DNA of 64,000 bases from an uncultured candidatus Brocadiaceae bacterium (GCA_964543795.1 CAZIZN010000006.1:143619-207618); one strand, 5' to 3'; counted from the stretch's first letter, positions 6,346 through 50,139 are shown. Translations and numbers: made by a program. Notes: a model not told the origin generated them from the sequence alone.

Positions 6346-7253
6346 GACAGCGGTGCCGCGAGCGCTGCCCGCACGCTGCCTTCGCAGTGGAACAGCAACG
6401 TGCGTGCCCGCGCCGCGTCGACGACCTTCTGCAGCGCGACGATCGCCGTCTTCACCTCGCCGTCGCACTCCCGCAGCACACGCTCCGCCGTGGCCGCATC
6501 GCAGCCGGCCGCCTGCTGCACGATGCGCTGGCTGCGCGCGACGAGCTTCTGGTTGGTCGCCTGCAGATCGACCATCAGGTTGCCGTAGACCTTGTGCAGG
6601 CGCACGAACGCGCCGGTGCTCAGCATGTTGAGCACCATCTTGGTGGCGGTGCCCGCCTTGAGGCGCGTGCTGCCGGTCAGGACCTCCGGGCCGGTGACCA
6701 CCTCGATGGGCAGCTCCGCCGCGGCCGCGACCGCGCTGCCGGCGTTGCAGACCACCGCCACGGTGAGCGCGCGGCACTGCCGCGCGAAGCGCAGCGCCCC
6801 CACGACGTAGGGCGTGCGGCCGCTCGCGGCGATGCCGACGACGGCGTCCTTGGGCCCGAGATCGAGGCGGCGCAGATCGTCGGCGCCCTGGGCTTCGCTG
6901 TCCTCGGCGCCTTCGACGGCCTTCGCGAACGCGCCGGGACCACCGGCGATCAGGCCGACCACCTGCTGCGGATCCGCCGAGAAGGTCGGCGGGCACTCGA
7001 CGGCGTCGAGCACGCCGAGCCGGCCCGAGGTGCCGGCCCCGCAGTAGATCAGCCGGCCGCCCTTGCGCATGCGTTCGGCGATCGCGTCGACCGCGCCGGC
7101 GATGGCGCCCAGCTGCAGGCGCACGGCGTCGGCCACGGCGCGGTCCTCGTCGTTCATCGCCTGCACGAGGTCTTGCGTCGACATCGCGTCGAGGTCGGTG
7201 GTGCGCGGATTGCGCGCCTCCGTGGTGAGCGCCGTGAGATCCGGTTTGGTCAT
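6342..7253 (-). CDS. murQ: N-acetylmuramic acid 6-phosphate etherase
   Basis: SIS-domain protein starting MTKPDLTALTTEARNPRT. Other segments: GRLIYCGAGTSGRLG, AASGRTPYV, GSTRLKAGTATK. I prefer the ATG at 7253 to the upstream start at 7304. Confidence 0.85.
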   Translation of the reverse strand: MTKPDLTALTTEARNPRTTDLDAMSTQDLVQAMNDEDRAVADAVRLQLGAIAGAVDAIAERMRKGGRLIYCGAGTSGRLGVLDAVECPPTFSADPQQVVGLIAGGPGAFAKAVEGAEDSEAQGADDLRRLDLGPKDAVVGIAASGRTPYVVGALRFARQCRALTVAVVCNAGSAVAAAAELPIEVVTGPEVLTGSTRLKAGTATKMVLNMLSTGAFVRLHKVYGNLMVDLQATNQKLVARSQRIVQQAAGCDAATAERVLRECDGEVKTAIVALQKVVDAARARTLLFHCEGSVRAALAAPLS

Positions 7254-7296
7254 GGCTCTGCAGGCCAGTATAGACGCGCGCCCCACCGCCCCGGCC

Positions 7297-9992: not shown

Positions 9993-11160
9993 CCCCACCC
10001 GCTTCGGTCTCGAGATCGTCTGCGAGCAGCCCCCCGAAGTGCTGCGCGCGAGCAAGCGCTTCGGCCTGCTCTGCAACCAGGCCTCGGTCGACGGCGCGTT
10101 CCGGCACGCCGCCGACGTGCTGCACACGAAGTTCCCGGGCCGCCTCGCGGCGCTGTTCAGCCCGCAGCACGGCCTGTGGTCCACCGAGCAGGACAACATG
10201 ATCGAATCGGGCCACGGCCGGCACCCGCGCCTGCAGATCCCGGTGCACAGCCTCTACTCGGAGACGCGGCGGCCGACGCAGGCCATGCTCGACGGCCTCG
10301 ACCTGCTCGTCGTCGACCTGCAGGACGTCGGCACGCGCGTCTACACCTACGTCTGGACGCTGAGCTACTGCCTCGAGGCGTGCGCGCAGAAGGGCATCCC
10401 GCTGCTGGTGCTCGACCGCCCGAACCCGCTCGGCGGACTCGCCGCCGAAGGGCCGCTGCTGCAGCTCGACCACCGCAGCTTCGTCGGCCGCGCCGCGATC
10501 CCGATGCGGCACGGCCTCACACTCGGCGAACTGGCCCGCTTCTGCAACGACAGCATGGGGCTCGGCGCCGACGTGCACGTAGCACCGATGGCCGGCTGGC
10601 GGCGCACGATGCTCTGGCCCGACACGGGCCGCGCCTGGGTGCCGCCGTCGCCGAACCTGCCGCGCTTCGAGGGCTGCCTCGTCTATCCGGGCCAGGTGCT
10701 GCTCGAAGGCACGAACCTCAGCGAAGGCCGCGGCACGACGACGCCGTTCGAGCAGTGCGGCGCCCCGTTCGTCGATCCCTGGCAGCTGCAGGCCCTGCTC
10801 TCGACGCGCGCTCTCGACGGTGTGGCGCTGCGGCCGGTGCACTACGAGCCGACCTTCCACAAGTGGCGCGGGCAGACCTGCGGCGGCCTGTTCCTGCACG
10901 TCACGGACGCCGCGAAGTTCGCGCCCTACCGCACGACGCTGGCCCTGTTGCGCGCCGTGCGCGAACTCTGGCCGCAGCAGTTCGCATGGCTCGAGCCGCC
11001 CTATGAGTACGAGACCGAGAAGATGCCGATCGACGTGCTCACGGGCGGCAGCGAGGTGCGCGCGTTCGTCGAGGGCAAGCGGCCGTGGGCGCAGCTCGAG
11101 GCGCTGGCGAGCTCGCCGGACGACTGGTGGCAGCGCACGAGGCGGTTCCTGCTGTATTGA
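9985..11160 (+). CDS. second DUF1343 (NamZ-family) paralog, no signal peptide
   Basis: 8-nt overlap with the previous gene. It has the same conserved blocks (LLCNQASV, LFSPQHG, VVDLQDVGTRVYTY, VLDRPNP, PSPNL, EGTNLSEGRGT). The N-terminus MSDPTRFGLEIV has no hydrophobic leader. Confidence 0.8.
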   Translation: MSDPTRFGLEIVCEQPPEVLRASKRFGLLCNQASVDGAFRHAADVLHTKFPGRLAALFSPQHGLWSTEQDNMIESGHGRHPRLQIPVHSLYSETRRPTQAMLDGLDLLVVDLQDVGTRVYTYVWTLSYCLEACAQKGIPLLVLDRPNPLGGLAAEGPLLQLDHRSFVGRAAIPMRHGLTLGELARFCNDSMGLGADVHVAPMAGWRRTMLWPDTGRAWVPPSPNLPRFEGCLVYPGQVLLEGTNLSEGRGTTTPFEQCGAPFVDPWQLQALLSTRALDGVALRPVHYEPTFHKWRGQTCGGLFLHVTDAAKFAPYRTTLALLRAVRELWPQQFAWLEPPYEYETEKMPIDVLTGGSEVRAFVEGKRPWAQLEALASSPDDWWQRTRRFLLY

Positions 11161-11231: not shown

Positions 11232-11972
11232 ATGCGCCAGATCCTGCTGCCGCTCGCCATCACCGTTCTCGTCGCCCTCATGCCCGCCCAGTCCGACCCA
11301 CCCGCGCCCGGCAAGCAGGTCGAGCAGTCGCTCGCCGTCGGCGACGCGACGATCCGCTATCTCTGCTACCTGCCCGCCGACCACGCCACGCGTCGGGAAC
11401 CCGCGCCGCTGCTGCTGTTCCTGCACGGCCGCGGCGAGAGCAAGGGCCCGCTGGCGAACGTGGCGACCTGGGGACCGCCGAAATACCTCGCCGCCGGCGA
11501 CTCCCTGCCGATGGTCGTGCTGTCGCCGCAGTGCCCGATGGACGCGTGGTGGCACCACGACGAGCAGCAGCGGCTGCTGATCGCGCTGCTCGACCACGCC
11601 GAACGCACGCTGCGCATCGACGAGGACCGCGTCTACGTCGCCGGCCTCAGCATGGGCGGGTTCGGCACGTGGCGGCTCGCCGCCGACCACGCCGGCCGTT
11701 TCGCCGCGGCCGTGGCCGTCTGCGGCGCCGGCGAACCGGCGTGGGCGCCGAAGCTGACGAAGCTGCCGATCTGGGCCTGGCACGGCGCCGACGACCGCAT
11801 CGTGCCGCACGCGCGCTCCGTCGAGATGGTCGAGGCGATCCGCAAGGCCGGCGGCGAACAGGTGCGTTTCACGAGCCTCGCGCACGTCGGCCACAACAGC
11901 TGGGAACCGGCGTTCCGCTCCCCCGACCTCTGGCGCTGGCTCGGCGAACAGCGGCGCGCGAAGGCGCACTGA
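11232..11972 (+). CDS. secreted alpha/beta-hydrolase (carboxylesterase/peptidase-like)
   Basis: Signal peptide LVALMPAQS, nucleophile elbow GLSMGG, plus LFLHGRGES and WHGADDRIVP. Confidence 0.7.
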   Translation: MRQILLPLAITVLVALMPAQSDPPAPGKQVEQSLAVGDATIRYLCYLPADHATRREPAPLLLFLHGRGESKGPLANVATWGPPKYLAAGDSLPMVVLSPQCPMDAWWHHDEQQRLLIALLDHAERTLRIDEDRVYVAGLSMGGFGTWRLAADHAGRFAAAVAVCGAGEPAWAPKLTKLPIWAWHGADDRIVPHARSVEMVEAIRKAGGEQVRFTSLAHVGHNSWEPAFRSPDLWRWLGEQRRAKAH

Positions 11973-11976
11973 CGCG

Positions 11977-13800
11977 GTGCCGGCGACGCCTTGCGGTAGC
12001 ATCGCCGACGTGCGCCTCTCCCTCTGGCCCCTGCTGATCGTGCCCGCACCGCCGCTCTCGGCGCAGGACGCGGCGGGCACCGGCCTCGCCGAGCGCTACT
12101 GCGCCGAGTGCCACACCGGCGCCGACGCCGAACGGGGCTTCCGCATCGACGCAGCCTTGGCCGATGCGACCGGCGCCGGGGCCGAGCAGGCGCTCCTGCG
12201 CCTGCGCTCGCGCACGATGCCGCCGCCCGACGCCGCGCAGCCTACCGCCGAAGAACGCCGCCGGCTCGCGGCGCACCTCGCCGCGCGCGTGCCGGTCGAT
12301 CCCGCGGCCGCGGCCCCGACGATGCGCCGGCTGGCCAGGGTCGAGTACGAACGCACGGTCCGCGACCTGTTCGGCATCGACTGGCGCGGCGGCGATCTGC
12401 TGCCCGAGGATCCGCGGGCCTACGGTTTCGACAACGTCGGCGACGTCACCGGCATGACGCCGCTGTCGTTCGAGAAGTACGCCGCCGCGGCCGCCGCGAT
12501 CGCAGCGCTCGTTCTCGCGGATCCGGCCGCGACGGCGCGCGCGTTCGGCGACGGGGCGCCGCTCGCGACGGGTCTCGCCGACCTGCTCGACCGCGCGTTC
12601 CGCCGGCCCGCCCACCAGGCCGAGATCGACGCGCGCTGCGAGCTGTTCGCGTCGCTGCGCGCGGCGGGCCACGACGAGACGACGGCGCGCGCGGCCGTGC
12701 TGCGCAGCGTGCTGACCTCGCCGTCGTTCCTGTTCCGCGTCGAGGTCGATCGTCCGGACGGCGGCCTCTCGGGCCACGAACTCGCGGTGCGGTTGTCCTA
12801 CCTCCTGACCGGTTCGTCGCCCGATGCAGCGCTGCGCCAGCGCGCGGCCCGCGGCGAACTGCACGACCGCGCGGTGCTCACCGCCGAGGCGCGGCGACTC
12901 GTCGCCGCGACGGGCGGCCGCCAGCTCGCCGAACGCTTCGCCGCACAGTGGCTGCGCCTGCAGGACGTACTGACCCACAACGCGGACTTCCGGCGCTACC
13001 CGGAGATCTGGAACCACGCGCTGCGGCCGGCCTTCCACGAGGAGGCCGTGCGGTTCTTCGCGGCGCTGGCGGCCGGCGACGAACGCGTGCTGCTGCTGCT
13101 CGATGCGGACTTCACGTTCGCGAACGACACGCTGCGGCGGCACTACGGGCTGCCCGGCGACGGCGGCGGCGACGAGTGGCAGCGCGTGCCCCTGCCCGAC
13201 CGCCGCCGCGGCGGGGTACTCGGCATGGGGGCGATGCTGTTCGTCTCGTCCTACCCGTTGCGCACGAGCCCGGTGCTGCGCGGCAAGTGGGTGCTCGACC
13301 ACCTGCTCGACACGCCGCCGCCGCCGCCGCCGCCCGGTGCAGGCACGCTGCCCGCGGACGACCGGCAGCCCGACGAACTGACGCTGCGCCAACGCCTCGA
13401 ACGGCATCGCCAGCAGAAGTCCTGTGCGGACTGCCACGCCCAGATCGACCCGATCGGTTTCGCGCTCGAGAACTACGACGTGCTCGGCCGCTGGCGCGAC
13501 GCCGTGCACGGCCAGGCGGTGGACGCACGCGCCGAACTGCCCGACGGCACCGCCCTCGACGGCCCGGCCGCGCTCAAGGACGCGCTGCTGCTGCGCCAGG
13601 ACGACTTCGTGCGGGCGATGGCCAAGGCCCTGCTCGTCTTCGGCACCGGCCGGCCGACCGCCGTCGCCGACGAAGCCGAACTGCAGCGCATCGTCGGCGC
13701 CAGCGCGGCGGGCGACCACCGTTTCGGCCCGTTGCTCGACGCCGTCATCACGTCGCCGCTCTTCACGAGCCGGCGGCTCGCCCCGGAGAAGCGGCCGTGA
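11977..13800 (+). CDS. DUF1592/DUF1587/DUF1588/DUF1585 family protein with a c-type heme motif
   Basis: CAECH heme motif. It also has RRLARVEYERTVRDLFGI (DUF1587-like), LTSPSFLFRVE (DUF1588-like) and CADCHAQIDPIGFALENYDVLGRWR (DUF1585-like). The start may be the GTG at 12010, which gives signal peptide MRLSLWPLLIVPAPPLSAQ. Confidence 0.75.
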   Translation: MPATPCGSIADVRLSLWPLLIVPAPPLSAQDAAGTGLAERYCAECHTGADAERGFRIDAALADATGAGAEQALLRLRSRTMPPPDAAQPTAEERRRLAAHLAARVPVDPAAAAPTMRRLARVEYERTVRDLFGIDWRGGDLLPEDPRAYGFDNVGDVTGMTPLSFEKYAAAAAAIAALVLADPAATARAFGDGAPLATGLADLLDRAFRRPAHQAEIDARCELFASLRAAGHDETTARAAVLRSVLTSPSFLFRVEVDRPDGGLSGHELAVRLSYLLTGSSPDAALRQRAARGELHDRAVLTAEARRLVAATGGRQLAERFAAQWLRLQDVLTHNADFRRYPEIWNHALRPAFHEEAVRFFAALAAGDERVLLLLDADFTFANDTLRRHYGLPGDGGGDEWQRVPLPDRRRGGVLGMGAMLFVSSYPLRTSPVLRGKWVLDHLLDTPPPPPPPGAGTLPADDRQPDELTLRQRLERHRQQKSCADCHAQIDPIGFALENYDVLGRWRDAVHGQAVDARAELPDGTALDGPAALKDALLLRQDDFVRAMAKALLVFGTGRPTAVADEAELQRIVGASAAGDHRFGPLLDAVITSPLFTSRRLAPEKRP

Positions 13801-37220: not shown

Positions 37221-37945
37221 GCCGCCTCCGCGGACCGCTGCCGGCGGCCGTCGTCGGCGGCGATCGCGCCGTCGCGCAGCGTGATGCGGCGTTCGGCGCG
37301 CGCCGCCACGCCCGGGTCGTGCGTGATCATGACGATCGTGCGGCCCTGCGCGTGCAGGTCGACGAACATGCCGATGATCTCGGCCGAGGTCTTGCTGTCG
37401 AGGTTGCCGGTCGGCTCGTCGGCGAGGATCAGCGCCGGCTCGTTGACGAGCGCCCGTGCCAGTGCCGTGCGCTGGCATTCGCCGCCCGACAACATCGTCG
37501 GCAGGTGGTCGAGGCGATGGCCGAGACCGACGCGGTCGATCAGCGCCGCGGCGCGCCGGCGCCGCTCCTGGCGGCCCACGCGTGCGTAGAGCAGCGGCAG
37601 CTCGACGTTCTCCTGCACGCTGAGGTGCGAGACGAGCTGGAAGGACTGGAAGACGAAGCCGATGTGGGTCTTGCGCACCCGCGACAGGCTCTGGTCGTCG
37701 AGTCGGGCCACGTCCTCGCCGACCAGGTGGTAGGAGCCGGTGCTGGGCCGGTCGAGGCAGCCGAGGATGTTGAGCAGCGTCGACTTGCCCGAGCCCGACG
37801 AGCCGACGATCGCCAGGTACTCGCCCTCCGCCACCGCGAGATCGATGCCGCGCAGCACGGGCACGGGGTTCTGGGACGTGCCGTAGGTCTTCGTGATGCC
37901 GCGCAGCAGCAGCACCGCGTCGCACGTGGGCTCGACCGACGTCAT
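37205..37945 (-). CDS. ABC transporter ATP-binding protein (MacB/LolD-type)
   Basis: Walker A GSSGSGKSTLLN, signature LSGGECQRTALARAL, Walker B ILADEPTGNLD. 16-nt overlap with the permease gene. Confidence 0.9.
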   Translation of the reverse strand: MTSVEPTCDAVLLLRGITKTYGTSQNPVPVLRGIDLAVAEGEYLAIVGSSGSGKSTLLNILGCLDRPSTGSYHLVGEDVARLDDQSLSRVRKTHIGFVFQSFQLVSHLSVQENVELPLLYARVGRQERRRRAAALIDRVGLGHRLDHLPTMLSGGECQRTALARALVNEPALILADEPTGNLDSKTSAEIIGMFVDLHAQGRTIVMITHDPGVAARAERRITLRDGAIAADDGRRQRSAEAACSTS

Positions 37946-39501
37946 GGCTTGTCGGGCTTGGCCGAGGCCTCGACGGCGGCGGCGCCCTTGGACTTCGCCT
38001 CCGGCGACGGGCTCTGCCCGTCCGCGCCTGCCGCGTCCTTCGCACCGCCGTCCTGCCCCTCGTCGCCGAGCAGCGGATTGTAGAGCAGCACCTGCTCGCG
38101 CTCCTCGAGCCCGGCGGCGATCTCGACGAACGCGTCGTTGCTGGCGCCGATCGTCACCTTGCGCTTCTGCGGTCCGGTCGCGGCGTGCACGTAGCAGAAG
38201 TGCTCGGCATCGACGGCGAACACGCACTGCAACGGCACGAACAGCACCTGCGGGCGTGTCTCGACGAGCACCTCGGCCTTGGCGCTGATGCCCGGGCGCA
38301 GCCGCTGCTCGCCGAGGCCCTTTTGGATCGTCACCTCGACGTCGAACTTCTTGACGTCGCGCGAGCCGTAGCCATCGCCGCTCGCGACGCTGGCGATGCG
38401 CGAGACCTCGCCCTCGAGCACGAGGCCCGGATAGGTCTCCATCGTCACGTTCGCGACGAGCCCCGTCTTGACCTTGTCGATGTCGGCCTCGTGGATCTTG
38501 ATCTTGACCTGCAGCACGCGCAGGTCGGGGATCGTCATCAGCGTCTGCCCGCCCCACACCTGGCCGCCGACCTTGACCTGCTGGCGGTACCACGGCTCGT
38601 GAGGGTCGCCGTAGACGACGATGCCCGGGCACGGCGCCTTGAGCGTCATGTTGTCGCGCTCCTCGGTGCGCTCCTTCAGCTGGTCCTGCTGGGCCTTGAG
38701 CCGCTTCTCGTACTGCTGCACCGCGACCTTCTTCTGGCCCAGCGTCGACTCGCCGCGCTTCTGCGCCGTCTGCAACTCGCGCTCGGCGTCCTTGACCTTG
38801 GTCTCGAGGTCGGCGACCTGCATCGGGAAGGTGTACTTCTCGAAGATCGCCATCTCGAGCTCCGCGCCCTCCTTCTGCACCGTCGTGCGCTCGTACTCGA
38901 TCTGGTGGTCCTCGAGCTCGGACTTCTTGATGAAGTTCTGCTTCAGCAGCAGCTGGCTGTCCTCGAAGTTCTTCTTCGCGCGGTTGTAGTTCGTCTCGGC
39001 GTCCTTGATCGCGACCTCGAGCTTCTTCTTCTGCTGCGGCGCCTCGCCGAGCACGTACTTCTCCTGCTCCTTCTTGGCGCGGTCGAGCGCGACCTCGGCC
39101 TTCGCCAGCGCCGAGACGTTCTCGACCTCCTGGATCTCGAGTTCGGTGCGCGCGGTCTTCAGGCTCGCTTCCGTCTGCAGGATCTCGAGGTTGAGCTGCT
39201 CGATCTGCTGTTCGAGCTGGGCTGGATCGAGCTTGCAGACGACGTCGCCCTCGGCGACCTGCTTGCCCTCCTCGACGAGCCAGGTGATCTTGCCCTCGCT
39301 GCGCAGCTTCGGCGTGATCTTCTGCGAGTCCTTGGCGACCAGCGTGCCGTTCTCGGTGATCGAGATCTGCAGGTCGTCGCGCCGCACCGTGAACAGCTCG
39401 TTGGCGTTGGTCGCGCCGGCCGCGGCATCCGGCGCTCCGCGCCAGTACCAGCCGCCGACGCCGAGCAGGAGAACCGCGGGAACGACGATCGCGAGCTTCA
39501 T
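37942..39501 (-). CDS. periplasmic adaptor (HlyD/MacA membrane-fusion protein)
   Basis: N-terminal TM MKLAIVVPAVLLLGV, a long K/E/Q-rich coiled coil, and beta-barrel C-terminal parts. ATGA overlaps at both ends. Confidence 0.8.
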   Translation of the reverse strand: MKLAIVVPAVLLLGVGGWYWRGAPDAAAGATNANELFTVRRDDLQISITENGTLVAKDSQKITPKLRSEGKITWLVEEGKQVAEGDVVCKLDPAQLEQQIEQLNLEILQTEASLKTARTELEIQEVENVSALAKAEVALDRAKKEQEKYVLGEAPQQKKKLEVAIKDAETNYNRAKKNFEDSQLLLKQNFIKKSELEDHQIEYERTTVQKEGAELEMAIFEKYTFPMQVADLETKVKDAERELQTAQKRGESTLGQKKVAVQQYEKRLKAQQDQLKERTEERDNMTLKAPCPGIVVYGDPHEPWYRQQVKVGGQVWGGQTLMTIPDLRVLQVKIKIHEADIDKVKTGLVANVTMETYPGLVLEGEVSRIASVASGDGYGSRDVKKFDVEVTIQKGLGEQRLRPGISAKAEVLVETRPQVLFVPLQCVFAVDAEHFCYVHAATGPQKRKVTIGASNDAFVEIAAGLEEREQVLLYNPLLGDEGQDGGAKDAAGADGQSPSPEAKSKGAAAVEASAKPDKP

Positions 39502-41120
39502 TGCCAGCCTCCCTGCGCATCGACGAAGAACAGCCCCATGTCGCGCAGCAACGACAGCCGGCCGATGAAATGCTCCACCTTGAGCCGGATCAGCGCGTTC
39601 TGCGCGTTGACGAGCGCCTGCCGCGCCTCGAGCAGGTCGCGGTTGTCGAGCTTGCCCGACTCGTAGCGGATCTCGGTCACCGTGACCGCGGCCCGCTCCT
39701 GCACGATCTGCTCTTCCTGCAGGCCGATGCGCTCCTCGGTGCTCTTGAGCCGGCGCAGCGCGTCGCGGATCTCGAGATCGAGCTGGTCCAGGCGCAGCGA
39801 GTAGCCGCGGCGGGCCTGCTCGAGCGCGATCTGTGCCGAACGCAGGTTGTTGCGCTCCGACCGGCGCTGCAGCGGGATCTCCATCTGCAGCCCGAGCGTC
39901 GCGTTCCAGTTCTCGGGGCCGGCGCGCGAAGCCTGCGTGTCGGTCCCCGCGAGGTCGTAGCGGGCGACGAGGTCGACGTCCGGCAGCAGCGTGTTCTCGG
40001 CGATGCGCAGCGAACGCTCGCTGTCCTCGACCTGCTGGCGCTGCGTGATCAGGTCCAGCCGGTTGTGGCGCGCCGCGGCGACGGCCGAACTCTCGCGGAT
40101 GCGCACCGGCTCGTACGGCGCCTCGCTGTCCTGCACGTCGAGCAACGTCGTGGTCGGCAGGCCGAGCAGGATCTTGAACTCGTCGAGCGCACGGTCGTAG
40201 TTGGCGCGCGCGTCGATGAGCTGGTCCTTGGCCTCGATCTCGCGACGCCGCGCGCGGTAGACCTCCTGCTCGGTGTTGCGGCCGACGCGGTAGAGCGCCT
40301 CGGCCTTGCCGCGATCGAACACCGCGCCCTGGTAGTTGGCGTCCTCGATGACCAGGGTCTTCTGCTGGCTCACGAGGTCGTAGTAGGTGCGCGCCACCGA
40401 GATCGCGAAGTTCTCGCGGTACTGTTCGAAGTCGCGGATCGCGTAGACGAAGCTGCGTTCGGCCTGCGTCAGCGCCTCGTGGGAGACCTCGTAGCCCGCG
40501 CCGCGCAACAGTGGCTGCGTGAGGCTGATGCCGACCGCGCTGCCGTAGGTGTCGGGACCGCCGTCGTCACCGAACGGCCACGCCGAGGTCGCCGACGACG
40601 TCAGCGCCAGCGTGCCGCCGGTCGGCAGCAGCTGGCTCACGCCCAGCGAAGCAGCCGCGTCCTGCCGCTCGCCGCCGTCCTCCTGCGCGGCGAGCACGTA
40701 GGAGACCGCCGCGTTCCACTGCGGCCCGAACTGGAAGCGCGTGAGCGAGATCGAGAGCCCCGACTGGTAGAGCCCCTCGCGGCGCGTCAGCAGGTCGCGG
40801 TTGCTCGCAAACGCCGTCGCCAGCGACCGCTGCAGGTCGTAACGGTCGACGGCCTGCACGGCCGGTGCGGCGGGCGGCGACGGCGGCGGCGGCGCGGCGG
40901 GGTCGTTCGGATCCGGGTGCGGTGCCGCATCGGGCGGCGGCGCCGGCGGCGGCTCGACCTCGGGCTCCACGACCCACTCGCGGCGGTCGCCGAGCACCTG
41001 CTGCACGCCCTCGGCGAGGATGGACTCGACGTCGCGATCGGCGTCGCGGGTGTAGCTGTCGACCGAGCAGGCGGCGAGCAGGGACAGGACGACGAACGGG
41101 TGTGAGCTTCGATGGCGCAT
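39498..41120 (-). CDS. TolC-family outer-membrane efflux lipoprotein
   Basis: Lipobox LSLLAAC. Two internally repeated halves with TolC-like helical segments. It is the first gene of the four-gene operon. Confidence 0.7.
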   Translation of the reverse strand: MRHRSSHPFVVLSLLAACSVDSYTRDADRDVESILAEGVQQVLGDRREWVVEPEVEPPPAPPPDAAPHPDPNDPAAPPPPSPPAAPAVQAVDRYDLQRSLATAFASNRDLLTRREGLYQSGLSISLTRFQFGPQWNAAVSYVLAAQEDGGERQDAAASLGVSQLLPTGGTLALTSSATSAWPFGDDGGPDTYGSAVGISLTQPLLRGAGYEVSHEALTQAERSFVYAIRDFEQYRENFAISVARTYYDLVSQQKTLVIEDANYQGAVFDRGKAEALYRVGRNTEQEVYRARRREIEAKDQLIDARANYDRALDEFKILLGLPTTTLLDVQDSEAPYEPVRIRESSAVAAARHNRLDLITQRQQVEDSERSLRIAENTLLPDVDLVARYDLAGTDTQASRAGPENWNATLGLQMEIPLQRRSERNNLRSAQIALEQARRGYSLRLDQLDLEIRDALRRLKSTEERIGLQEEQIVQERAAVTVTEIRYESGKLDNRDLLEARQALVNAQNALIRLKVEHFIGRLSLLRDMGLFFVDAQGGWQ

Positions 41121-41298
41121 CGCGAGGGGCGGTCGCAGCAGCGCGGCAGACGTCGGCCGGGTTCACGACCTTCCCGGTTTCCTCCGCGGCGAGAGCGGTC
41201 GGCCGCGATTGGAGCAGCCGCCAACCCGAGGCGTAAGGCCCCCGCCGGGAAAACCTCGCGCTGCGGACGCCGACCGGCCGTCTATCCTCCCGCCGTCC

Positions 41299-43273: not shown

Positions 43274-44008
43274 TCAAATGTAGCCGCTGGTCATCGCCAC
43301 CTGCTGGCCCTCGATCAGCTCGGTGCCGAGGAACCCGACCGCGACCACCGGCGAAGCCGTCTTCGGGAACTTGCGCGCGTTGGCGGTCTGCCCCTTCACC
43401 TGTCGGAACGTCGGCGAATCGGCGAGCACGACGTCGACGGCATCGCACCGTGCTGCGGTGACCTTCGCGTAGGTCGTCGTCTCGACCAGCAAGCCGCGCT
43501 GCTGCAGGAAGCCGGCGATGCGCTGCGTGCGTTCCTCCTCGTCGACCGCGACGAGCAGCACGCGCAGCGCTTCCTTCGGCGTCGCGAGATCGAGTTCGAT
43601 CGGCGGCAGGCACTCGAGCGGATCGCAGACCAGGAACCGCATGCGCGCCGACAGCGCGTCGCCGACGCCGATCCGCTGCAGCGGCAGGCGCAGCGTCGCC
43701 AGACCCGTGATGAGGCCCTTGTCGTCCATCGGCGCGTCGAGTTCGCCGGTCGCCGCGAACGCACCCCCCGTGATCGTGACAGCCACCGCTTCGCCGGCCC
43801 CGGTCTCGCGGCCGTAGAGGTGCCAGCCCTTCTTCAGCTCGACGACGATCGCGAGTTGGGCTCCGTCGTGGCTGGCGGCCACCGTGAGCGGCGCACCGTC
43901 GGGCAGACCGGCAACGGTGAGGGGCGTGGCGGATGGGGCGGACTGCGCCGGCGCGACCGCGCCCAGCATCGAGAGCAACAACGAGTGGCAACGCATCGGG
44001 CCGCGCAT
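43274..44008 (-). CDS. secreted protein with a DsbD-N/DsbC-like thiol-disulfide domain and an unassigned C-terminal domain
   Basis: The internal ATG at 44008 gives MRGPMRCHSLLLSMLGAVAPAQS. KKGWHLY and FLVCDPLECLPP resemble the DsbD N-terminal-like family. The C-terminal ~110 aa are unassigned. Confidence 0.5.
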   Translation of the reverse strand: MRGPMRCHSLLLSMLGAVAPAQSAPSATPLTVAGLPDGAPLTVAASHDGAQLAIVVELKKGWHLYGRETGAGEAVAVTITGGAFAATGELDAPMDDKGLITGLATLRLPLQRIGVGDALSARMRFLVCDPLECLPPIELDLATPKEALRVLLVAVDEEERTQRIAGFLQQRGLLVETTTYAKVTAARCDAVDVVLADSPTFRQVKGQTANARKFPKTASPVVAVGFLGTELIEGQQVAMTSGYI

Positions 44009-44174
44009 GCTACAGCACTCGTGCGCACCACGGCGCCGTGACAGCGGAGTTACGTGTTCGACCCGCTCCACCTCCGCGCCGACGCTCGGCTCGACAGGAA
44101 CGGTTCGCGACCGATCATCGCCGGCGATGTCCACCCGGTCCCGCTGACTGCGCGGCCTCAGGTTCATCGCCTGG

Positions 44175-44318
44175 GTGACGATCGCCACGCTCGTGCTGGC
44201 CGAGGCGGTCATGCAGGTCGGGGCCTATGCGCTGCACCTTGCCCGACGCACGACCGCGCCGGCGGCCAGGACCGCGGCTGCGGACGCGCCGGCCACCGAC
44301 CGGATCCTCTGCGTCGGC
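44175..44318 (+). pseudogene. N-terminal fragment of a third membrane-anchored SGNH hydrolase paralog, truncated by the IS remnant
   Basis: The frame opens after the TGA at 44145. It encodes a TM helix (TIATLVLAEAVMQVGAYALHLARR) like the N-termini of 23926-25119 and 29178-30260. It then reads DRILCVG and breaks exactly where block I GDS is expected. Confidence 0.35.
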
Positions 44319-44660
44319 TGGCAACGGCAACATGAAAAGGGACCCCGCGGCAGTCTGAAAAGGGACCCCCTCCCGGACGCCGCGTAGGGCGCAAACCGGC
44401 CCTCCCAGCCACGATCGGGTTTCCAAACGACCGGTCGCAGCCAGGAGGGCCAGGAGTGCTCAGGATGACCCAGTGGGCAGAGATTCGCCACCAACACCAA
44501 GTCGACGGCGTCCCCAAGAAGGAGCTGGCGAGGCGGTTCGACATCGACGTGAAGACGGTCCGGCGTGCCCTGAAGCAGGCGACGCCCCGAAGCGCCGGAC
44601 GGCCAAGCGGCCGAGCCGGATGGACCTGTTCCGCGGCCGGATCGAGGAGCTGCTTCTCCA
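44319..44660 (+). mobile_element. IS21-family element remnant (left end plus a frameshifted, truncated istA 5-prime part)
   Basis: TG terminus at 44319. A 14-nt direct repeat TGAAAAGGGACCCC occurs at 44333-44346 and 44356-44369. IstA-like HTH MTQWAEIRHQHQVDGVPKKELARRFDIDVKTVRRALKQ continues in another frame as KRPSRMDLFRGRIEELL, then similarity ends. There is no catalytic domain and no istB. Confidence 0.6.
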
Positions 44661-44970
44661 ACTCGCCGACCACGCCGCGGCCCTAGCGTCGATCGACCGG
44701 TGCCTGCCGAGCTACCGCGCCGCGTGGGTCTTCGGCATCCGCTACAAGGTGCAGCGGTTGGGCCTGCGCAACCTGCCCGAGGCGCTGCGTTCGATCTACG
44801 ACGATCAAGGTCTGTTCCGCCCACCGCCCACCGCTTCGCCGAAGCCCGCAAACCGTCCGCTCGACGGGACGGATGGAGGAAGACCGGCGCCCCCCCGAGG
44901 TAGAGTGGAGAGGTCACGACTCGCGCAATAGACAGATCCCATCCCACAGCCATCCCGATCGGCGAGCACC

Positions 44971-45465
44971 ATGCAAGAACCACTGCCGAAGTACGATCTC
45001 GAAGTGATCCGGATGGCCGCGGCCAGGGGAGCGCGCTCGCAGACGGTTCACACGCAGAACGTCACCGATGCGATCGAAGCGACCGTAGAGGCCTGGGAGA
45101 ACAAGCTCATGAACTGTCGCGCGGTGCGTAACTGGGAGGCATGGGCGTTCCGGGTCGCTGCCAACGCCGCGAAGCGGGCGGCGGCGCGGTCACCCAGAGC
45201 GATCTCGATCCCGAGCGCCGGTGCTGGCCAATCCCCACCCGGGGATCATCACGGCCTCGACCCGACACCGGCACTACGCCGGACCCTGCGCCTGGCGATC
45301 GTGAGTCGCGGATCCCGGCTGATCGGACGCCAACTCGAAGTCGTGTTGAAGCTCCTGGAGCCGCAGATGTCGCTGCACCGCGCCGCACGGGAACTGTGCA
45401 TGGACCGCACCGCACTCCGGCGGTCCTTCCGCACGGCGTTGGCACGCCTGCGCGGATCTTCCTGA
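44971..45465 (+). CDS. divergent ECF-like sigma-70 family factor
   Basis: Region-2-like VTDAIEATVEAWENK...NWEAWAFRVAANAAKRA and region-4-like LIGRQLEVVLKLLEPQMSLHRAARELCMDRTALRRSFRTALARLR. Confidence 0.55.
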   Translation: MQEPLPKYDLEVIRMAAARGARSQTVHTQNVTDAIEATVEAWENKLMNCRAVRNWEAWAFRVAANAAKRAAARSPRAISIPSAGAGQSPPGDHHGLDPTPALRRTLRLAIVSRGSRLIGRQLEVVLKLLEPQMSLHRAARELCMDRTALRRSFRTALARLRGSS

Positions 45466-45571
45466 CCCCAAAAGTACCCCCCCCACCTCTTGGCGATGCG
45501 GGATGTTGCGTCGGCCACGACGTCGCGGCGGCCGCGGGAAGCCAGACAGTCCACACACACAAGGGGGCACA

Positions 45572-45973
45572 ATGTTGCTTTCGACGTGCAAGTATCTGCT
45601 CATCGCCTGTTTCGCAATGACCGCCGGCCTTCCCTTCCTGGCGGCGCCAGACACCTGCCGACTCAACGTGAAGAACGTCGGCACTGACGAGGTCCCCATC
45701 TACGACTTCGACTGCGCGGGCACCTGCGCGGTGAGCGGACCCTGTGCCGAGGACAGCACGACGGGCGGCGGCACGACGGTGTGGTTCTGCGAGTGCAATG
45801 GCAACACCGTGACGACCAAGTGCGCAGGCAGAGTCTCCCTCTACCAGGGGACCTACACTCCCATATGCGTCCGCAACAACTGCTCCAACAGTTGCTTCCC
45901 ACCGATCGTGTTCCCCGTGCCCGTCGCCGAACTGCCCGCGAACGTCTGCATGTGCCCGGATGTCGGATCCTAG
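45572..45973 (+). CDS. small secreted cysteine-rich protein (133 aa precursor, 12 Cys after the signal peptide)
   Basis: AAGGGGG lies 4 nt upstream of the ATG at 45572. Signal peptide MLLSTCKYLLIACFAMTAGLPFLAA. The mature part has 12 cysteines, including the CEC and CMC pairs. I recognise no family. Confidence 0.7.
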   Translation: MLLSTCKYLLIACFAMTAGLPFLAAPDTCRLNVKNVGTDEVPIYDFDCAGTCAVSGPCAEDSTTGGGTTVWFCECNGNTVTTKCAGRVSLYQGTYTPICVRNNCSNSCFPPIVFPVPVAELPANVCMCPDVGS

Positions 45974-45976
45974 CCG

Positions 45977-47635
45977 ATGCGCCCCGATGCACGAACGACG
46001 CTGGTCTGCGCGGCAGCAATGACCATCATCGGCCTCTTGTGGATGCTCTCCGGTGATCCGGCACCGGAGTCCGGGGCGCACTCCGGGTTGGCCCATCCTG
46101 AGGCACCTTCCGTCGGAACGACGCGACCCGTCGCCGATGCTCCGCACCGACAGGAACACCTCGCCGACGGACTGGCGACAGTCGACGGTGCAACCCTCGT
46201 GGTCGTCCGTGACCCGAGCGGTGCCCCGATCGTCGGTGCCGACGTCCGTGTCGTGAAGTCAGACGCAACAGGTGCCTCGCCCCGTCGGCTGCCAGTGGGG
46301 ACGAGCGGACCCACCGCCCGCTGCGATGATCGGGGGGTGGCTACGTTCCTGCCGACAATCACCCCTGGGCACACCCTGATCGCATCGCACGCATCGCACG
46401 CCCACGCGCACCATCCGGTGACCGCCGTGAAGGATCGGATCGACATCACCCTGCAGCCGGCGGCGACGCTCCGCATCTCCTGTCGGACGCGGGACGGCAA
46501 GCCCTTGTCCGGGGTTCGGGTGTCCGCATCCTCGCGCCCACTGGCCAATCCACCCACCGACGGCGAGACGCGCCTCGCCCCTGGACCGGATCCCGCGACG
46601 GCCATCCATGAAGCCGTCTCCGGAGGCGACGGGAGAGCGATCGTCGGCGGACTGCTCCCAGGACGAGTCTACGTCGTACTCGATCACGGAACGCACGTGG
46701 CGGCGGGACTGTTGCGCAAGCAGCCCATCTCGGTAGCCGCTGGCTCCGTCGACCTGGAGGAGTCGTTCGATCCGATCGCCGGCATCCATGCCGCAATGAG
46801 CGGCGACAGCATCGTCACCTGGAACCTGCGGATCCCGAAGAGCATCGTCCACGATCCGCGCGTCATCCGGAGCCTCGGTGCTCTGACGGAGTCCTTGCAG
46901 TCCAACCGCGGAGACACGCTGTGTTTCCTCGGGGCCAGGCGGTACGACCCGAAGACCGGCGATTACATGCCGCTTCCCGACAACCTGCGCGTGACCCTGT
47001 TGACGGATGCCCTCGGCGTCGTTCAGGCAAAGGTCCGACCGCAGACGGGGCCGAACCTGTACTCGGTCCAGGAGATTCGTCTCGATACATCCCGCCCCGC
47101 GGCACCGACGGAATTGGTTTCTGTGCTGCTTCTGCACGCGGACGGATCCCAGATGCTCGACACGAGCATGTGTACCCTTCTTCCCGAAGACGTAGAACTG
47201 GTCGGTCTCTCGATTCCATTACCCCGACTTCCTGTACGTTTGCCGCTCGGGAGCTACACCCTGCGAGGACATACCGCCTTCCTCGACCGCGCACTGGGAT
47301 CCCAACGGATCCACGTCGCCGCCGGCGTGACGCAGCATGCCGTCACGTTGACGCAACCTCTGGTCGCCTGCCGGTTCCTCGTCAACGACGATCTGGGAGT
47401 GGAAGTCGATGCGGCGGACATCACCATCGTGCATGGCGACGCGAAGGAGAGCTTCTCCTGCGACCATGGACTGCCGACGCGCGTGTATCACCTGCCGCCC
47501 GGCGAGTTGAAGATCCAGGTCGTGGCCAGGGGCTGCAAGCCGGTGTCGCTCACGACCAACTTGACCGAAGGCGAAGCCACGAAAGGCGCAACGACGGCCC
47601 GGGTCATCTCGGTGATCGCCCCCCGATCGGAGTAG
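45977..47635 (+). CDS. single-pass membrane protein with carboxypeptidase-regulatory-like beta-sandwich repeats
   Basis: It starts 3 nt after the previous stop. N-terminal TM LVCAAAMTIIGLLWML. Repeated segments of the type VVVRDPSGAPIVGADVRVV...DDRGVATF...PGHTLIASHASH, and a His-rich stretch HASHAHAHH. Confidence 0.6.
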   Translation: MRPDARTTLVCAAAMTIIGLLWMLSGDPAPESGAHSGLAHPEAPSVGTTRPVADAPHRQEHLADGLATVDGATLVVVRDPSGAPIVGADVRVVKSDATGASPRRLPVGTSGPTARCDDRGVATFLPTITPGHTLIASHASHAHAHHPVTAVKDRIDITLQPAATLRISCRTRDGKPLSGVRVSASSRPLANPPTDGETRLAPGPDPATAIHEAVSGGDGRAIVGGLLPGRVYVVLDHGTHVAAGLLRKQPISVAAGSVDLEESFDPIAGIHAAMSGDSIVTWNLRIPKSIVHDPRVIRSLGALTESLQSNRGDTLCFLGARRYDPKTGDYMPLPDNLRVTLLTDALGVVQAKVRPQTGPNLYSVQEIRLDTSRPAAPTELVSVLLLHADGSQMLDTSMCTLLPEDVELVGLSIPLPRLPVRLPLGSYTLRGHTAFLDRALGSQRIHVAAGVTQHAVTLTQPLVACRFLVNDDLGVEVDAADITIVHGDAKESFSCDHGLPTRVYHLPPGELKIQVVARGCKPVSLTTNLTEGEATKGATTARVISVIAPRSE

Positions 47636-47643
47636 ACCTGCTC

Positions 47644-48090
47644 GTGTCGACGGATCACCACGCTCCTGGAGGGCCCTGGTGTGCCCGCATTGGCACCCTG
47701 CTCCTGTCCACGACCCTGCTGATCTGTGCAGCCCTGAAGGCTTTCTCCCCCTACTCCGAGGAGTACCTGATCTCGAAGCCCGTCTACTTCGGGAGCGCAA
47801 CATTGGAAGCCCTGTTGGCCGTGATGCTCTGGAGCCGGCTGCATCGTCTGGCACTCACGCTCCTGGTCCTGGCCTTGTCGGGAACGGCAGTGTTCCTGTG
47901 GGTGGGTGGTCTGCTCGACACCGCGCCCTGTGGCTGCTTCGGCTCGTGGCGCGTCTCGCGCAAACTCCACTTCGTCCTCGTCGGAACTCTGGGCATGCTC
48001 GCCATGGCGACCTACTGCGCCTTGGGCAAGCCCCCCACGCGTCCCGGCCGTGCGACGACGCGCGGCGCGCACGCGGCGCCGCTGCCGTAA
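47644..48090 (+). CDS. MauE/DoxX-like redox-associated membrane protein
   Basis: GTG at 47644, 8 nt after the previous stop. About 4 hydrophobic segments and the CGCFG motif I associate with MauE-type proteins. This is the last 148 codons of the 389-aa track ORF. Confidence 0.55.
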   Translation: MSTDHHAPGGPWCARIGTLLLSTTLLICAALKAFSPYSEEYLISKPVYFGSATLEALLAVMLWSRLHRLALTLLVLALSGTAVFLWVGGLLDTAPCGCFGSWRVSRKLHFVLVGTLGMLAMATYCALGKPPTRPGRATTRGAHAAPLP

Positions 48091-48188: not shown

Positions 48189-48689
48189 ATGACCGAAGCT
48201 GCCGTGCCCCACCGCACCGACGACGCCGCGTTCGCGGCGTTCCTGCAGGCGCAGCACGCACGGCTGCTGCAGTTCCTGCGCCGGCTGTGCGGCACCGACG
48301 CCGAGGACGTGCTGCAGGAGACCCTGGCGAAGGTCTGGCGCCTGCGGCACGGCTTCGATGCGGCGCAGAACGGCGAAGCCTGGCTCCTGCAGGCGGCGTT
48401 CCGCACCTTCTGCGACCATCGCGCCCGGGGCCGGCGCGCGCCGCCGACGCTGTCCGCCGACGCCGATCCGCCGGCCCCCGCGCACGCGTGCCCGATCGAA
48501 CTGCGCGACGAGGTGTCGCGCTGCCTTCGGGGCCTGCCGCCGATCGAACGCGACCTGCTGCTCGGCTTCCACGCGCACGGCCTCTCGCTGCGCGAACTCG
48601 CCGAGCGCCACCACCTGCCGCTCAACACCGTCAAGTCGCACCTGCACCGCGCCCGCCAGCGGCTGCAGGCCCGCCCGGAGGACGCATGA
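48189..48689 (+). CDS. ECF sigma factor
   Basis: ATG at 48189. Region 2 AEDVLQETLAKVWRLRHGFD...AWLLQAAFRTFCDHRAR, region 4 LPPIERDLLLGFHAHGLSLRELAERHHLPLNTVKSHLHRARQRL. Confidence 0.8.
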   Translation: MTEAAVPHRTDDAAFAAFLQAQHARLLQFLRRLCGTDAEDVLQETLAKVWRLRHGFDAAQNGEAWLLQAAFRTFCDHRARGRRAPPTLSADADPPAPAHACPIELRDEVSRCLRGLPPIERDLLLGFHAHGLSLRELAERHHLPLNTVKSHLHRARQRLQARPEDA

Positions 48690-49150
48690 CCCCTGCCGAG
48701 TTCGACGCCCGTCTGCACGAACTGCTCGACCGCCGTCTGGACCCGCTCGACGACCCGGATTGCCGCGCCTTCCTCGACGCGCACCCGCACCGGCTGCCGG
48801 ACTTCGCGGCGCTGCGCCTACGGCTCGCGGCACTGCCCCACCTCGCCGAGCCCGTGCCTGCACCGGTGCCGACGCCGCGCCCCTGGCGCCGCCTCGCACC
48901 GTGGTGGTCGCTCGCGGCGGCCGCCGCGATCGCCCTCTGGCTCGCCCGCCCGACGCCGGCACCGGCCCCGGCGGCAGCAGCCCCGGCGGCGCCAGAACCC
49001 GCCGCCGCGCCGCGCGGCCGCGTGCTCGCCGCAGCTCTGGAGCCCATCCACCAGCGGCTCGGGGCCGTCGCCACCGCGCAGGCGCGCGCCGTGCTGCTCG
49101 ACCGACCCGACGCACGCCTCGAGACCTTCGTGCAGTGGAGTTCCCCATGA
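48686..49150 (+). CDS. putative anti-sigma factor (single TM)
   Basis: ATGA overlap with the sigma gene. An N-terminal helical region, then TM APWWSLAAAAAIALWLA. Confidence 0.45.
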   Translation: MTPAEFDARLHELLDRRLDPLDDPDCRAFLDAHPHRLPDFAALRLRLAALPHLAEPVPAPVPTPRPWRRLAPWWSLAAAAAIALWLARPTPAPAPAAAAPAAPEPAAAPRGRVLAAALEPIHQRLGAVATAQARAVLLDRPDARLETFVQWSSP

Positions 49151-50139
49151 AACCGATCCTCCTGTCCCTCGCATCGCTCACCGGCCTCTACGTTGCGCTG
49201 CCGGCGCAGAAGATGCCGCTCGCCGACGAGAGCCAGCGCCAGGTCGTCGTGCTCGACGTCGGCGACCTGATCGGCAAGGCGCCGCCGCCAGCACTCGTGT
49301 CGGGCCGCAGGGCGGCGACGACGCCGAGCGAACTGCAGCGCGTGGCCGCGTTCGTACGCGCCTTCGCCGAACCGGCCCTCGGCGACGGCGCCGACCTGCA
49401 GCCGCTCGGCGACCGCCACCTCGTCGTGCTGGGGTCGGCCGTGCAGGTCGCCGCCACCGAGCGGCTGGTCGCGCATGCACGCACCACGCGTGCAAAGCAG
49501 TTCCTGCTCGACGTGCGGCTCTGCACCGTGCCGGGCGCGTTCTTCGATCGCGAGCTGGCCGGCAAGCTCGCCGTCGCAGCCGGTGAACCGGGCCAGACCG
49601 GCGCCGGCCCGCACGTGGCCGTGCTCGATGCCGAAGCGGCGGCGGCGATCACGCGGGCGATGCGGCAGGATGCGCAGGCCAGGGTCCTGCAGGCGCCGCA
49701 GATCGTCGTGAACACGCTCCACTCCGCGACGCTGCAGATCGGCGAACAGGTGTCCTACGTGCGCGACTTCGAGATCGAGATCGTGCAGGGGGCGAGGATC
49801 GCCGACCCCGTGGTCGAAGTCCTGTTCGACGGCCAGCAGGTCGAGGCGCTCTGCGCCGAGGTCGACGACGGGCTCATCGGCGTACAGATGCAGGTCATCG
49901 ACCAGTCCGTGGAGAAGCCGATCCGCACGATCCCGTCGCGCGTGCCGGGCATCGAGCAGGAGCTCACGCTGCAGGTGCCGCGCACCACCGGCTGCCGCGG
50001 CAACCAGACCGCCCTGCTGCCGGACGGAGCGACGGCCGTGATGGCCGCCCGCAAGAACGACGGCACGTGGCTCTTGTCGTTGATGACCGTGAACGCGATC
50101 CGCGCCGCCGTGCCGATCGGCCCCGGCGAGCGACGCTGA
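49147..50139 (+). CDS. secreted short secretin-domain-like protein
   Basis: ATGA overlap with the upstream gene. Signal peptide MKPILLSLASLTGLYVALPAQ. The C-terminal half resembles a secretin C-domain (ARVLQAPQIVVNTLHSATLQIGEQVSYV...LIGVQMQVIDQSV...ALLPDGATAVMAA). Confidence 0.5.
   Translation: MKPILLSLASLTGLYVALPAQKMPLADESQRQVVVLDVGDLIGKAPPPALVSGRRAATTPSELQRVAAFVRAFAEPALGDGADLQPLGDRHLVVLGSAVQVAATERLVAHARTTRAKQFLLDVRLCTVPGAFFDRELAGKLAVAAGEPGQTGAGPHVAVLDAEAAAAITRAMRQDAQARVLQAPQIVVNTLHSATLQIGEQVSYVRDFEIEIVQGARIADPVVEVLFDGQQVEALCAEVDDGLIGVQMQVIDQSVEKPIRTIPSRVPGIEQELTLQVPRTTGCRGNQTALLPDGATAVMAARKNDGTWLLSLMTVNAIRAAVPIGPGERR

Follow-up and report, generated by a model that had tools for sequence, protein, structure and literature searches.

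A three-gene cassette encoding a cysteine-rich secreted protein, a beta-sandwich membrane protein and a MauE-like protein: a candidate dedicated oxidative-folding system from a Brocadiaceae bacterium

Beside DsbB and VKOR, a third major enzyme that generates disulfides in bacteria has only recently been put forward, namely MauE. In the mau cluster (mauE/mauD/mauA), the small subunit, which holds six disulfides, does not mature unless MauE is present. Disulfide-forming enzymes may also be kept as a private copy next to a client, an arrangement that the locus considered here resembles in its logic: the dedicated pair DsbI-DsbL is encoded beside its substrate, an arylsulfate sulfotransferase. The present analysis concerns a gene cluster in a 64,000-nucleotide (nt) stretch of DNA, hereafter the window, from an uncultured candidatus Brocadiaceae bacterium (GCA_964543795.1, CAZIZN010000006.1:143619-207618). 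In this cluster a gene for a small, cysteine-rich secreted protein (open reading frame 2, ORF2) is followed by genes for a membrane-anchored protein with a beta-sandwich domain (ORF3) and a MauE-like membrane protein (ORF4). A preliminary description of the sequence had joined these three genes to the preceding ORF1 and proposed a private oxidative-folding module under its own sigma factor.

Recent experimental work bears directly on this proposal. In E. coli without dsbB, either of two MauE proteins restores motility and PhoA activity, and mutating either cysteine of the CXC motif abolishes the activity of both (bioRxiv 10.64898/2026.03.05.709764). Across 15,413 MauE sequences, the CXC is followed by a conserved Phe-Gly, and a lysine in transmembrane (TM) helix 1 and a glutamate in TM2 line the predicted quinone site. 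The same preprint describes MauE as a generalist that is widespread in bacteria, notes that disulfide-generating enzymes normally work via a thioredoxin-fold carrier, to which 8.2% of MauE entries are fused, and cites an earlier study suggesting that MauE may be a reductase (bioRxiv 10.64898/2026.03.05.709764). The idea of a private module gains a mechanistic base from this work, because it shows MauE replacing DsbB by way of the CXC and the following Phe-Gly.

The cassette and its three proteins

The conserved unit is a three-gene, operon-like cassette at positions 45572-48090, from which ORF1 is excluded (Tables 1 and 2). We read it as a dedicated oxidative-folding cassette, in which a six-disulfide secreted protein would be served by its own MauE-type enzyme with ORF3 as scaffold or partner, and we give this reading a probability of roughly 0.6. 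The gene order, the conserved cysteines and neighbourhood, and the signature of MauE are observed. ORF calling and inspection of the sequence confirmed the four ORFs of the preliminary description, with their strand and coordinates and the intergenic gaps of 106, 3 and 8 nt, and an NCBI assembly has identical called genes for all four on a 236,740-bp contig (lengths in Table 1). GGAG lies 11 nt ahead of the GTG start of ORF4.

ORF2 contains 14 cysteines, two in an N-terminal hydrophobic segment and 12 in the ~108 residues of the mature part, where they make up 11.1% of residues; the share in 23 genes of the neighbourhood is 1.4% (binomial P = 4e-8). The signal-like segment covers residues 2-20, and the mature part is acidic, with an isoelectric point of 4.2. 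The details reported earlier for this gene, namely the ribosome-binding sequence AAGGGGG, the 12 mature cysteines, the CEC (residues 73-75) and CMC (126-128) pairs and the single tryptophan, are all present in the sequence.

A word-index search returned only two relatives of ORF2, at 52-55% identity and with all 12 mature cysteines invariant; it gave no relatives of ORF3 or ORF4 beyond the proteins themselves. The alignment of ORF2 with these two relatives then served as a HMMER profile in an exhaustive search of 1.84 billion representatives, in which 28 clusters were listed for the cysteine-rich family at E <= 0.001. Homologues with conserved cysteines, whose absence would have told against the earlier interpretation, thus exist. 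A further search with alignment A1 against genome and metagenome contig collections found nothing. In the family alignment (A4, 30 sequences), each of the 12 mature cysteines is kept in 28-30 members and an N-terminal hydrophobic leader occurs in every one. Besides the cysteines only a few glycines are conserved; the other positions vary freely, including the middle residue of both CxC pairs, and the single tryptophan of ORF2 is not invariant. The C-terminus stops 2-4 residues past a CxC, mostly as CxCPD(A/V). No Pfam family matched any of the 30 members at E <= 0.01, no NCBIfam model matched ORF2, and the family profile found nothing significant among PDB sequences. Judged from these comparisons, ORF2 is the founder of a hitherto unannotated protein family of ~30 clusters.

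With the 30 sequences as input, AlphaFold2 returned a confident all-beta model of ORF2 (predicted local distance difference test, pLDDT, 88.4; predicted template modelling score, pTM, 0.75), whereas with three sequences the pLDDT was only 46. The model has six strands, which can be read as three hairpins (30-35/44-49, 58-65/68-75 and 84-91/94-101), with cysteines at the start and end of each (29/48, 58/73-75 and 84/99), and this placement suggests hairpin-closing disulfides in the predicted structure. A Foldseek comparison of the model with the PDB gave no match at E <= 0.001, and no fold match was obtained in BFVD either.

For ORF3, the preliminary description had proposed a single-pass membrane protein built of carboxypeptidase-regulatory-like repeats. 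Hydropathy shows one N-terminal hydrophobic helix (residues 8-26), which in the orthologue alignments (A5 and A7) is followed by a variable Pro/Ala-rich linker and ~480 conserved residues. Residues 76-159 match CarboxypepD_reg (PF13620) with 31.7 bits against a gathering cut-off of 32.3, and all seven aligned orthologues match the same family weakly (E <= 0.1); the homologues at L102 and L104 score 22-27 bits, in a different part of the protein. The hydropathy agrees with a single pass, and the first domain is CarboxypepD_reg-like at just under the cut-off. The repeat array is weakly supported, as the additional copies are non-significant: with a profile of domain 1, both the following stretch and the C-terminal stretch of ORF3 score below significance. 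It is plausible from the sequence that ORF3 is built of repeats, and the part outside the membrane is predicted to form a large extracytoplasmic beta-rich region. Beyond the first domain, ~400 residues match nothing, and for ORF3 as a whole there was no match to thioredoxin or another catalytic family, no recognised cofactor motif and no sequence relative in the PDB. Not one cysteine is invariant across seven ORF3 orthologues; therefore ORF3 is not a thiol-exchange catalyst. The stretch HASHAHAHH, singled out earlier as a feature of the protein, is real in the window ORF3, but it is absent from the closest orthologue and is not conserved.

The identification of ORF4 as a MauE-like protein, made in the preliminary description from its CGCFG motif, is borne out. 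PF07291 is matched by ORF4 and by each of three full-length orthologues (best E = 2.8e-7); in ORF4 the match spans model positions 43-127, CXC included. Four hydrophobic windows (Kyte-Doolittle) place helices at approximately 16-34, 47-65, 70-91 and 107-128, with CGCFG at residues 96-100 in the TM3-TM4 loop. Lys32 in TM1, Glu55 in TM2, Cys96, Cys98 and Gly100 are invariant in ORF4 and the three full-length orthologues (alignment A8), and Lys32 is also found in the partial MauE-like genes of L011 and L018. The motif reads CGCFG in L010, L013 and L102 and CRCAG in L016. The MauE-like proteins of the cassettes are short, at 123-148 residues. Its signature marks ORF4 as a minimal, divergent MauE-like protein, and it probably supplies the disulfide bonds of the cassette as a predicted quinone-linked enzyme.

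Conservation of the neighbourhood was assessed by comparing the window with contigs that encode other members of the cysteine-rich family (Table 2). An ORF3 homologue follows the cysteine-rich gene in 10/11 independent loci, and the eleventh, L006, ends after 74 residues. The assignment was made by sequence comparison for L001, L009, L010, L011, L013, L016, L018 and L020, and rests on position, size and a weak CarboxypepD_reg match for L102 and L104. A MauE-like gene comes next in seven of the eight loci that can be read that far (the window, L010, L011, L013, L016, L018 and L102), at a spacing from the ORF3 gene of +8, -4, +6, -4, -8, -4 and +28 nt; such spacing suggests that the two are translationally coupled. 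As protein identities are 18-38% and the G+C content of the loci differs (0.58-0.71), they are not copies of one recent element. The strict pairing of ORF3 with the cysteine-rich gene, which holds even in L104 where MauE is missing, points to a physical partnership. The expectation that the three genes would prove to be conserved neighbours is thus upheld, with the exception of L104, which has no MauE gene within 8 kb.

Three of these loci call for a further remark. In L104 (8001-13794), a 418-nt gap after the ORF3 homologue is followed by two paralogous B12-binding radical S-adenosylmethionine (SAM) genes, no CXC-type membrane ORF is found within 8 kb, and the cysteine-rich protein belongs to a subgroup without the C-terminal CPD. 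In L013, the ORF3 homologue (6633-8273, + strand) is called in the public record from 7263, and its true start is most likely at 6633. In L016, the MauE-like gene is uncalled in the public record.

Table 1. Positions in the window of the cluster genes and associated features
Feature	Position	Strand	Basis or remark
ORF1, 164 residues	44971-45465	+	possible very divergent extracytoplasmic function (ECF)-like sigma factor
ORF2, cysteine-rich precursor, 133 residues	45572-45973	+	ORF call, cysteine positions, hydropathy, homologues
ORF3, 552 residues	45977-47635	+	Pfam, hydropathy, orthologue alignments
ORF4, MauE-like, 148 residues, GTG start	47644-48090	+	Pfam, alignment, hydropathy
Shine-Dalgarno-like AAGGGGG	45561-45567	+	4 nt before the ORF2 ATG at 45572; sequence reading
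CGCFG codons (ORF4 residues 96-100)	47929-47943	+	predicted redox-active CXC, then conserved Phe-Gly
Truncated transposase-like helix-turn-helix (HTH) ORF, insertion sequence (IS) remnant	44456-44686	+	sub-threshold HTH_Tnp_ISL3, HTH_23 and HTH_28 matches; upstream edge of the lower-G+C segment

Table 2. Gene order at the loci compared (C, cysteine-rich gene; O3, gene of ~540 residues; M, MauE-like gene)
Locus	Gene order	Remark
Window	C-O3-M	
L001	C-O3, contig end	O3 32% identical, E = 5e-48
L006	C, then 74 readable residues of a TM-anchored protein, contig end	
L009	C-O3, contig end	O3 E = 1e-21
L010 (NCBI GCA_964418595.1)	C-O3-M	
L011	C-O3-M	M N-terminus only
L013	C-O3-M	most likely a 16-nt overlap of C with the O3 start
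L016	C-O3-M	M (10163-10534, +) lacks a gene call and has CRCAG; O3 hhalign 99.5%
L018	C-O3-M	M N-terminus only
L020	C-O3, contig end	O3 hhalign 98.4%
L102	C-O3-M	borderline family member (P0031, E = 5.5e-4); M has CGCFG
L104 (NCBI GCA_044229935.1)	C-O3, followed by two radical SAM genes (B12-binding)	no MauE-like ORF within 8 kb

A predicted folding pathway and competing explanations

In the pathway that we propose, the 133-residue precursor would be exported via Sec and its signal peptide removed, after which oxidation of the 12 invariant cysteines would give six structural disulfides and thereby lock the fold of a small all-beta domain. By homology with characterised MauE proteins, the oxidising equivalents would come from the MauE of the cassette through the CGC pair in the loop between helices 3 and 4, and the enzyme would in turn be oxidised by a quinone of the membrane, held close to Lys32 and Glu55, as has been suggested for those proteins. 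ORF3, anchored by one helix, would hold ~500 residues of beta-sandwich domains outside the cytoplasm, and would most likely act either as a scaffold or chaperone that keeps the unfolded client beside MauE or as a stable partner of the folded protein. Exchange of thiols between MauE and the client may be direct, or may involve a DsbA-like protein encoded elsewhere. Of the private module of the preliminary description, the oxidative-folding part is supported by the MauE signature, the mechanism reported in the preprint and the synteny, and the dedicated sigma factor has been dropped.

Several observations weigh against this reading. The match of ORF4 itself to the Pfam MauE model (E = 3.4e-5, 24.6 bits) is below the 27-bit gathering cut-off, and no NCBIfam model matches the protein. 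Its lysines and arginines number ~7 on the predicted inside and 5 on the outside, a weak preference for a topology with the N-terminus inside that does not clearly place the CXC loop on either side of the membrane. No thioredoxin-fold family matches ORF2 or ORF3, no thioredoxin-fold partner is encoded in the cassette, and no protein of the WCxxC type was found in the real ORFs of the 64-kb window. A simple scan revealed neither sigma-70 promoter-like nor terminator-like sites. Finally, L104 has the cysteine-rich gene and ORF3 with no MauE gene within 8 kb.

A bolder version of the pathway would dispense with the carrier altogether: ORF3 would replace DsbA/MauD and present the client to the CGC loop of the minimal MauE, which would oxidise it directly, and the product, a new disulfide-knotted fold, would remain on ORF3 as the small subunit of an envelope complex not described before. 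We regard this chain of assumptions as speculative and rather improbable as a whole.

A separate observation on carriers comes from L010, where the gene directly upstream of the cassette (8673-9824, + strand) is represented by two calls, of 51 and 315 residues, that form one frame broken by a TGA at 8826-8828. The context is FTFET-TGA-HWCK, with the TGA at the position of the first cysteine of a CxxC. The read-through product has a signal peptide and is thioredoxin-like (Thioredox_DsbH, 43 bits; Thioredoxin_7, 38 bits), with weak PQQ_2/beta-propeller similarity at its C-terminus. A hairpin is predicted after the TGA, and Rfam gave no match to a selenocysteine insertion sequence (SECIS) element. 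The gene is a candidate for a UxxC selenoprotein, which may fill the place of the thioredoxin-fold carrier that the L010 cassette lacks.

Among the alternatives, it is possible, although we would not favour it, that the cassette encodes a two-subunit envelope complex, with the cysteine-rich protein as the small and ORF3 as the large, membrane-anchored subunit. Such a complex would have an activity of its own (binding, sensing or catalysis), and MauE would only mature it, as it does the heavy and light chains of methylamine dehydrogenase. This would refine rather than contradict the dedicated folding cassette, as ORF3 would become the final partner instead of a folding helper. The linkage of the cysteine-rich gene with ORF3 (10/11 loci, MauE-less L104 included) is stricter than that with MauE, and the two genes are 3 nt apart in the window and overlap by 16 nt in L013; ORF3 is conserved over its full ~540 residues, and the set of genes is reminiscent of the mau cluster, with its small cysteine-rich subunit, its large subunit and MauE. 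However, neither a catalytic nor a cofactor motif can be recognised in ORF3, the PDB contains no relative, the His-rich stretch is not conserved, and the cysteine-rich protein lacks the two tryptophans required for a cofactor of the tryptophan tryptophylquinone (TTQ) type.

A toxin, bacteriocin or signal, as suggested in the preliminary description, would also be compatible with the folding mechanism, MauE being responsible for maturation and ORF3 for immunity or as an export aid. The product is small, acidic and, as predicted, disulfide-rich, its surface positions vary strongly with only cysteines and glycines fixed, and the family is rare and patchy in metagenomes and is found here in an accessory-like segment of lower G+C beside an IS remnant. 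Nevertheless, we consider this function unlikely, as there was no match to toxin, bacteriocin, immunity, export or phage-related families, no fold match to known toxins in the PDB or BFVD, and no dedicated exporter in the cassette.

The cysteines might, alternatively, be reduced and bind a metal (e.g., copper, zinc or cadmium) or an iron-sulfur-like centre through their thiolates, with the MauE-like protein keeping them reduced or handling redox stress and ORF3 handling the metal. Beta-sandwiches of the CarboxypepD_reg and DUF4198 types occur in metal-uptake proteins; one ORF3 orthologue has a weak DUF4198 match (E = 0.0015), and the window ORF3 has the His-rich stretch. The suggestion that MauE may be a reductase, made in the earlier study, would fit as well, but the complementation reported in the preprint that cites it supports oxidation and not reduction (bioRxiv 10.64898/2026.03.05.709764). 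Conservation does not extend to the His stretch, no link from MauE to an electron donor in the cytoplasm is known, and 12 evenly spread cysteines, mostly even cysteine counts and a confident compact all-beta fold are better explained by structural disulfides, which makes metal binding quite unlikely.

It is very unlikely that the cysteine-rich protein is itself a redox shuttle, with its two CXC pairs replacing the thioredoxin-fold carrier and passing disulfides from MauE to ORF3 or other envelope proteins. No thioredoxin-fold gene is present in the cassette and a CXC can be redox-active, as in MauE, but the residue inside both pairs varies freely, ORF3 has no invariant cysteine to accept a disulfide, 12 conserved cysteines far exceed what a shuttle needs, and L010 has a separate thioredoxin-like gene directly upstream. 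A chance placement of a housekeeping MauE gene beside two unrelated genes, conceivable for an enzyme called generalist and widespread (bioRxiv 10.64898/2026.03.05.709764), is scarcely credible because the synteny recurs, with the same three-gene order in seven of eight readable loci at G+C contents of 0.58-0.71 and with ORF3 and MauE genes mostly overlapping by 4-8 nt.

Genomic setting of the cassette

ORF1 had been taken for a divergent sigma factor belonging to the cluster. Its match to TIGR02937 spans model positions 16-162 of 165 with 17 bits (E = 0.0035) against a cut-off of 42.9; no Pfam family, including Sigma70_r2 and Sigma70_r4, and no PDB relative was matched, and comparison of ORF1 with the genuine ECF sigma factor 2.7 kb downstream (48189-48689) revealed no similarity. 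Where upstream genes can be read at other loci, they differ: a 144-residue unrelated ORF in L006, the thioredoxin-like gene in L010, a Peptidase_S51 gene in L013, a 1230-residue protein with 11 CarboxypepD_reg stretches in L016, and genes without assignment in L104. ORF1 as a conserved regulator of the cassette was therefore rejected, there being no counterpart at the other loci and the sigma match being far sub-threshold, although it may be a local regulator. The upstream regions of the loci do not align and no common promoter motif was found among them; Rfam matched zero RNA families in the window.

The genuine ECF sigma factor gene opens a group of genes directly downstream of the cassette (48189-50139, + strand) and has Sigma70_r2 and r4_2 domains above threshold. 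An overlapping ORF comes next, which matches no family and may encode an anti-sigma factor, and then a gene for a protein with weak secretin similarity.

The segment that holds the cluster looks accessory, because of its lower G+C and lower G+C at third codon positions (GC3) and the truncated HTH/transposase-like ORF just upstream, and the preliminary description of a more AT-rich, accessory segment beside an IS remnant agrees with these data. G+C at 44-48 kb is 0.66-0.67, as against 0.70-0.75 elsewhere (~71% for the window overall), and GC3 of the cluster ORFs is 0.77-0.85 as against 0.88-0.96 for most neighbours; ORF1 shares the low GC3. The IS remnant is spread over two frames, the N-terminal HTH part breaking off after 76 residues (44456-44686) and an ORF in another frame (44473-44931) perhaps continuing it. 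These sub-threshold HTH matches are consistent with what we take to be a frameshifted, truncated istA of the IS21 type at 44456-44931.

A gene that diverges from the segment (43274-44212, - strand) encodes a product that matches DsbD_N just short of the threshold (24.2 vs 25 bits), has a signal-like stretch in its interior and contains the sequence VCDPLECLPP, which resembles the redox loop of DsbD-alpha; its GC3 of 0.88 suggests that it belongs to the core genome and not to the cassette. Farther away, at 11758-13800 (+ strand), a protein with a CxxCH haem motif has the domain set PSD3-PSD5-PSD4-PSCyt3-PSD2, an architecture first described in Rhodopirellula. This domain set hints at an origin of the window in Planctomycetota or a lineage related to them; a scan of species genomes with UvrB returned hits from many phyla, all at 61% identity or less, and thus no close relative. 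Within the region 37942-41162 (- strand), the AT skew is strongly negative and G+C is reduced at 38-40 kb. This odd composition arises because of the gene for a Lys/Glu-rich coiled-coil protein that resembles a membrane-fusion (efflux) adaptor; it is situated between an OEP outer-membrane efflux gene and a MacB-type ATP-binding cassette (ABC) transporter-like ORF (from reading the translation), and the arrangement is ordinary.

Relation to described systems

No description of this gene combination was found in the literature; a paper on the C. jejuni fet cluster proved to deal with something other than MauE. As far as sequence comparison can tell, the novelty of the cassette is in a new client family, an obligatory beta-sandwich membrane protein, the absence of a thioredoxin-fold gene and a very short, divergent MauE. 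It offers a genetically defined candidate client for MauE, an obligatory third component in ORF3 and a minimal MauE of 123-148 residues, and the three proteins are small enough for joint expression, so that the natural clients of MauE outside methylamine dehydrogenase, and a general need for a thioredoxin-like carrier, become directly testable. Two unannotated families have been defined, one of them a predicted six-disulfide all-beta domain without a detectable fold relative in the PDB or BFVD, which could serve as a stable scaffold.

The mau cluster resembles the cassette in its gene content: next to the gene for a MauE-family protein lie genes for a small exported protein with 12 cysteines and for a large partner outside the cytoplasm. 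In contrast to MauA, the cysteine-rich protein shows no sequence or fold similarity by Pfam, PDB profile search or Foldseek, and the shared count of 12 cysteines does not indicate homology; nor does it carry a TTQ cofactor, since it has one tryptophan only, and that not invariant. Genes for a MauB-type heavy chain, a thioredoxin-like MauD, MauG or amicyanin are not found nearby, and the partner in the cassette is instead a TM-anchored beta-sandwich protein. The preliminary description had already set the protein apart from MauA on its single tryptophan and on the missing dehydrogenase-type neighbours, and the absence of a sequence or fold match now adds to this distinction.

The DsbB-DsbA and VKOR systems share with the cassette a quinone-linked membrane enzyme that makes disulfides for exported proteins. 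They differ in that ORF4 has no sequence relation to either enzyme (no Pfam match), in the use of CXC and not CXXC, and in the lack of a DsbA-like carrier gene in the cassette. ORF4 is closer to the generalist MauE proteins of Caldithrix abyssi (H1XRV2) and Desulfatibacillum aliphaticivorans (B8FLW7), with which it has in common the four helices, the CGC-F-G in the TM3-TM4 loop, the lysine in TM1 and the glutamate in TM2 (bioRxiv 10.64898/2026.03.05.709764). Those enzymes are presented as housekeeping oxidases that work via DsbA or MauD, whereas ORF4 is short, divergent, sub-threshold and genetically tied to one client family, with no thioredoxin-fold partner in the cassette. Lastly, ORF3 resembles the CarboxypepD_reg and transthyretin-like proteins in its first extracytoplasmic domain (the 31.7-bit match to PF13620, just below the curated cut-off), while its bitopic architecture and its fixed pairing with the cysteine-rich protein and MauE are features of ORF3 that distinguish it from that family.

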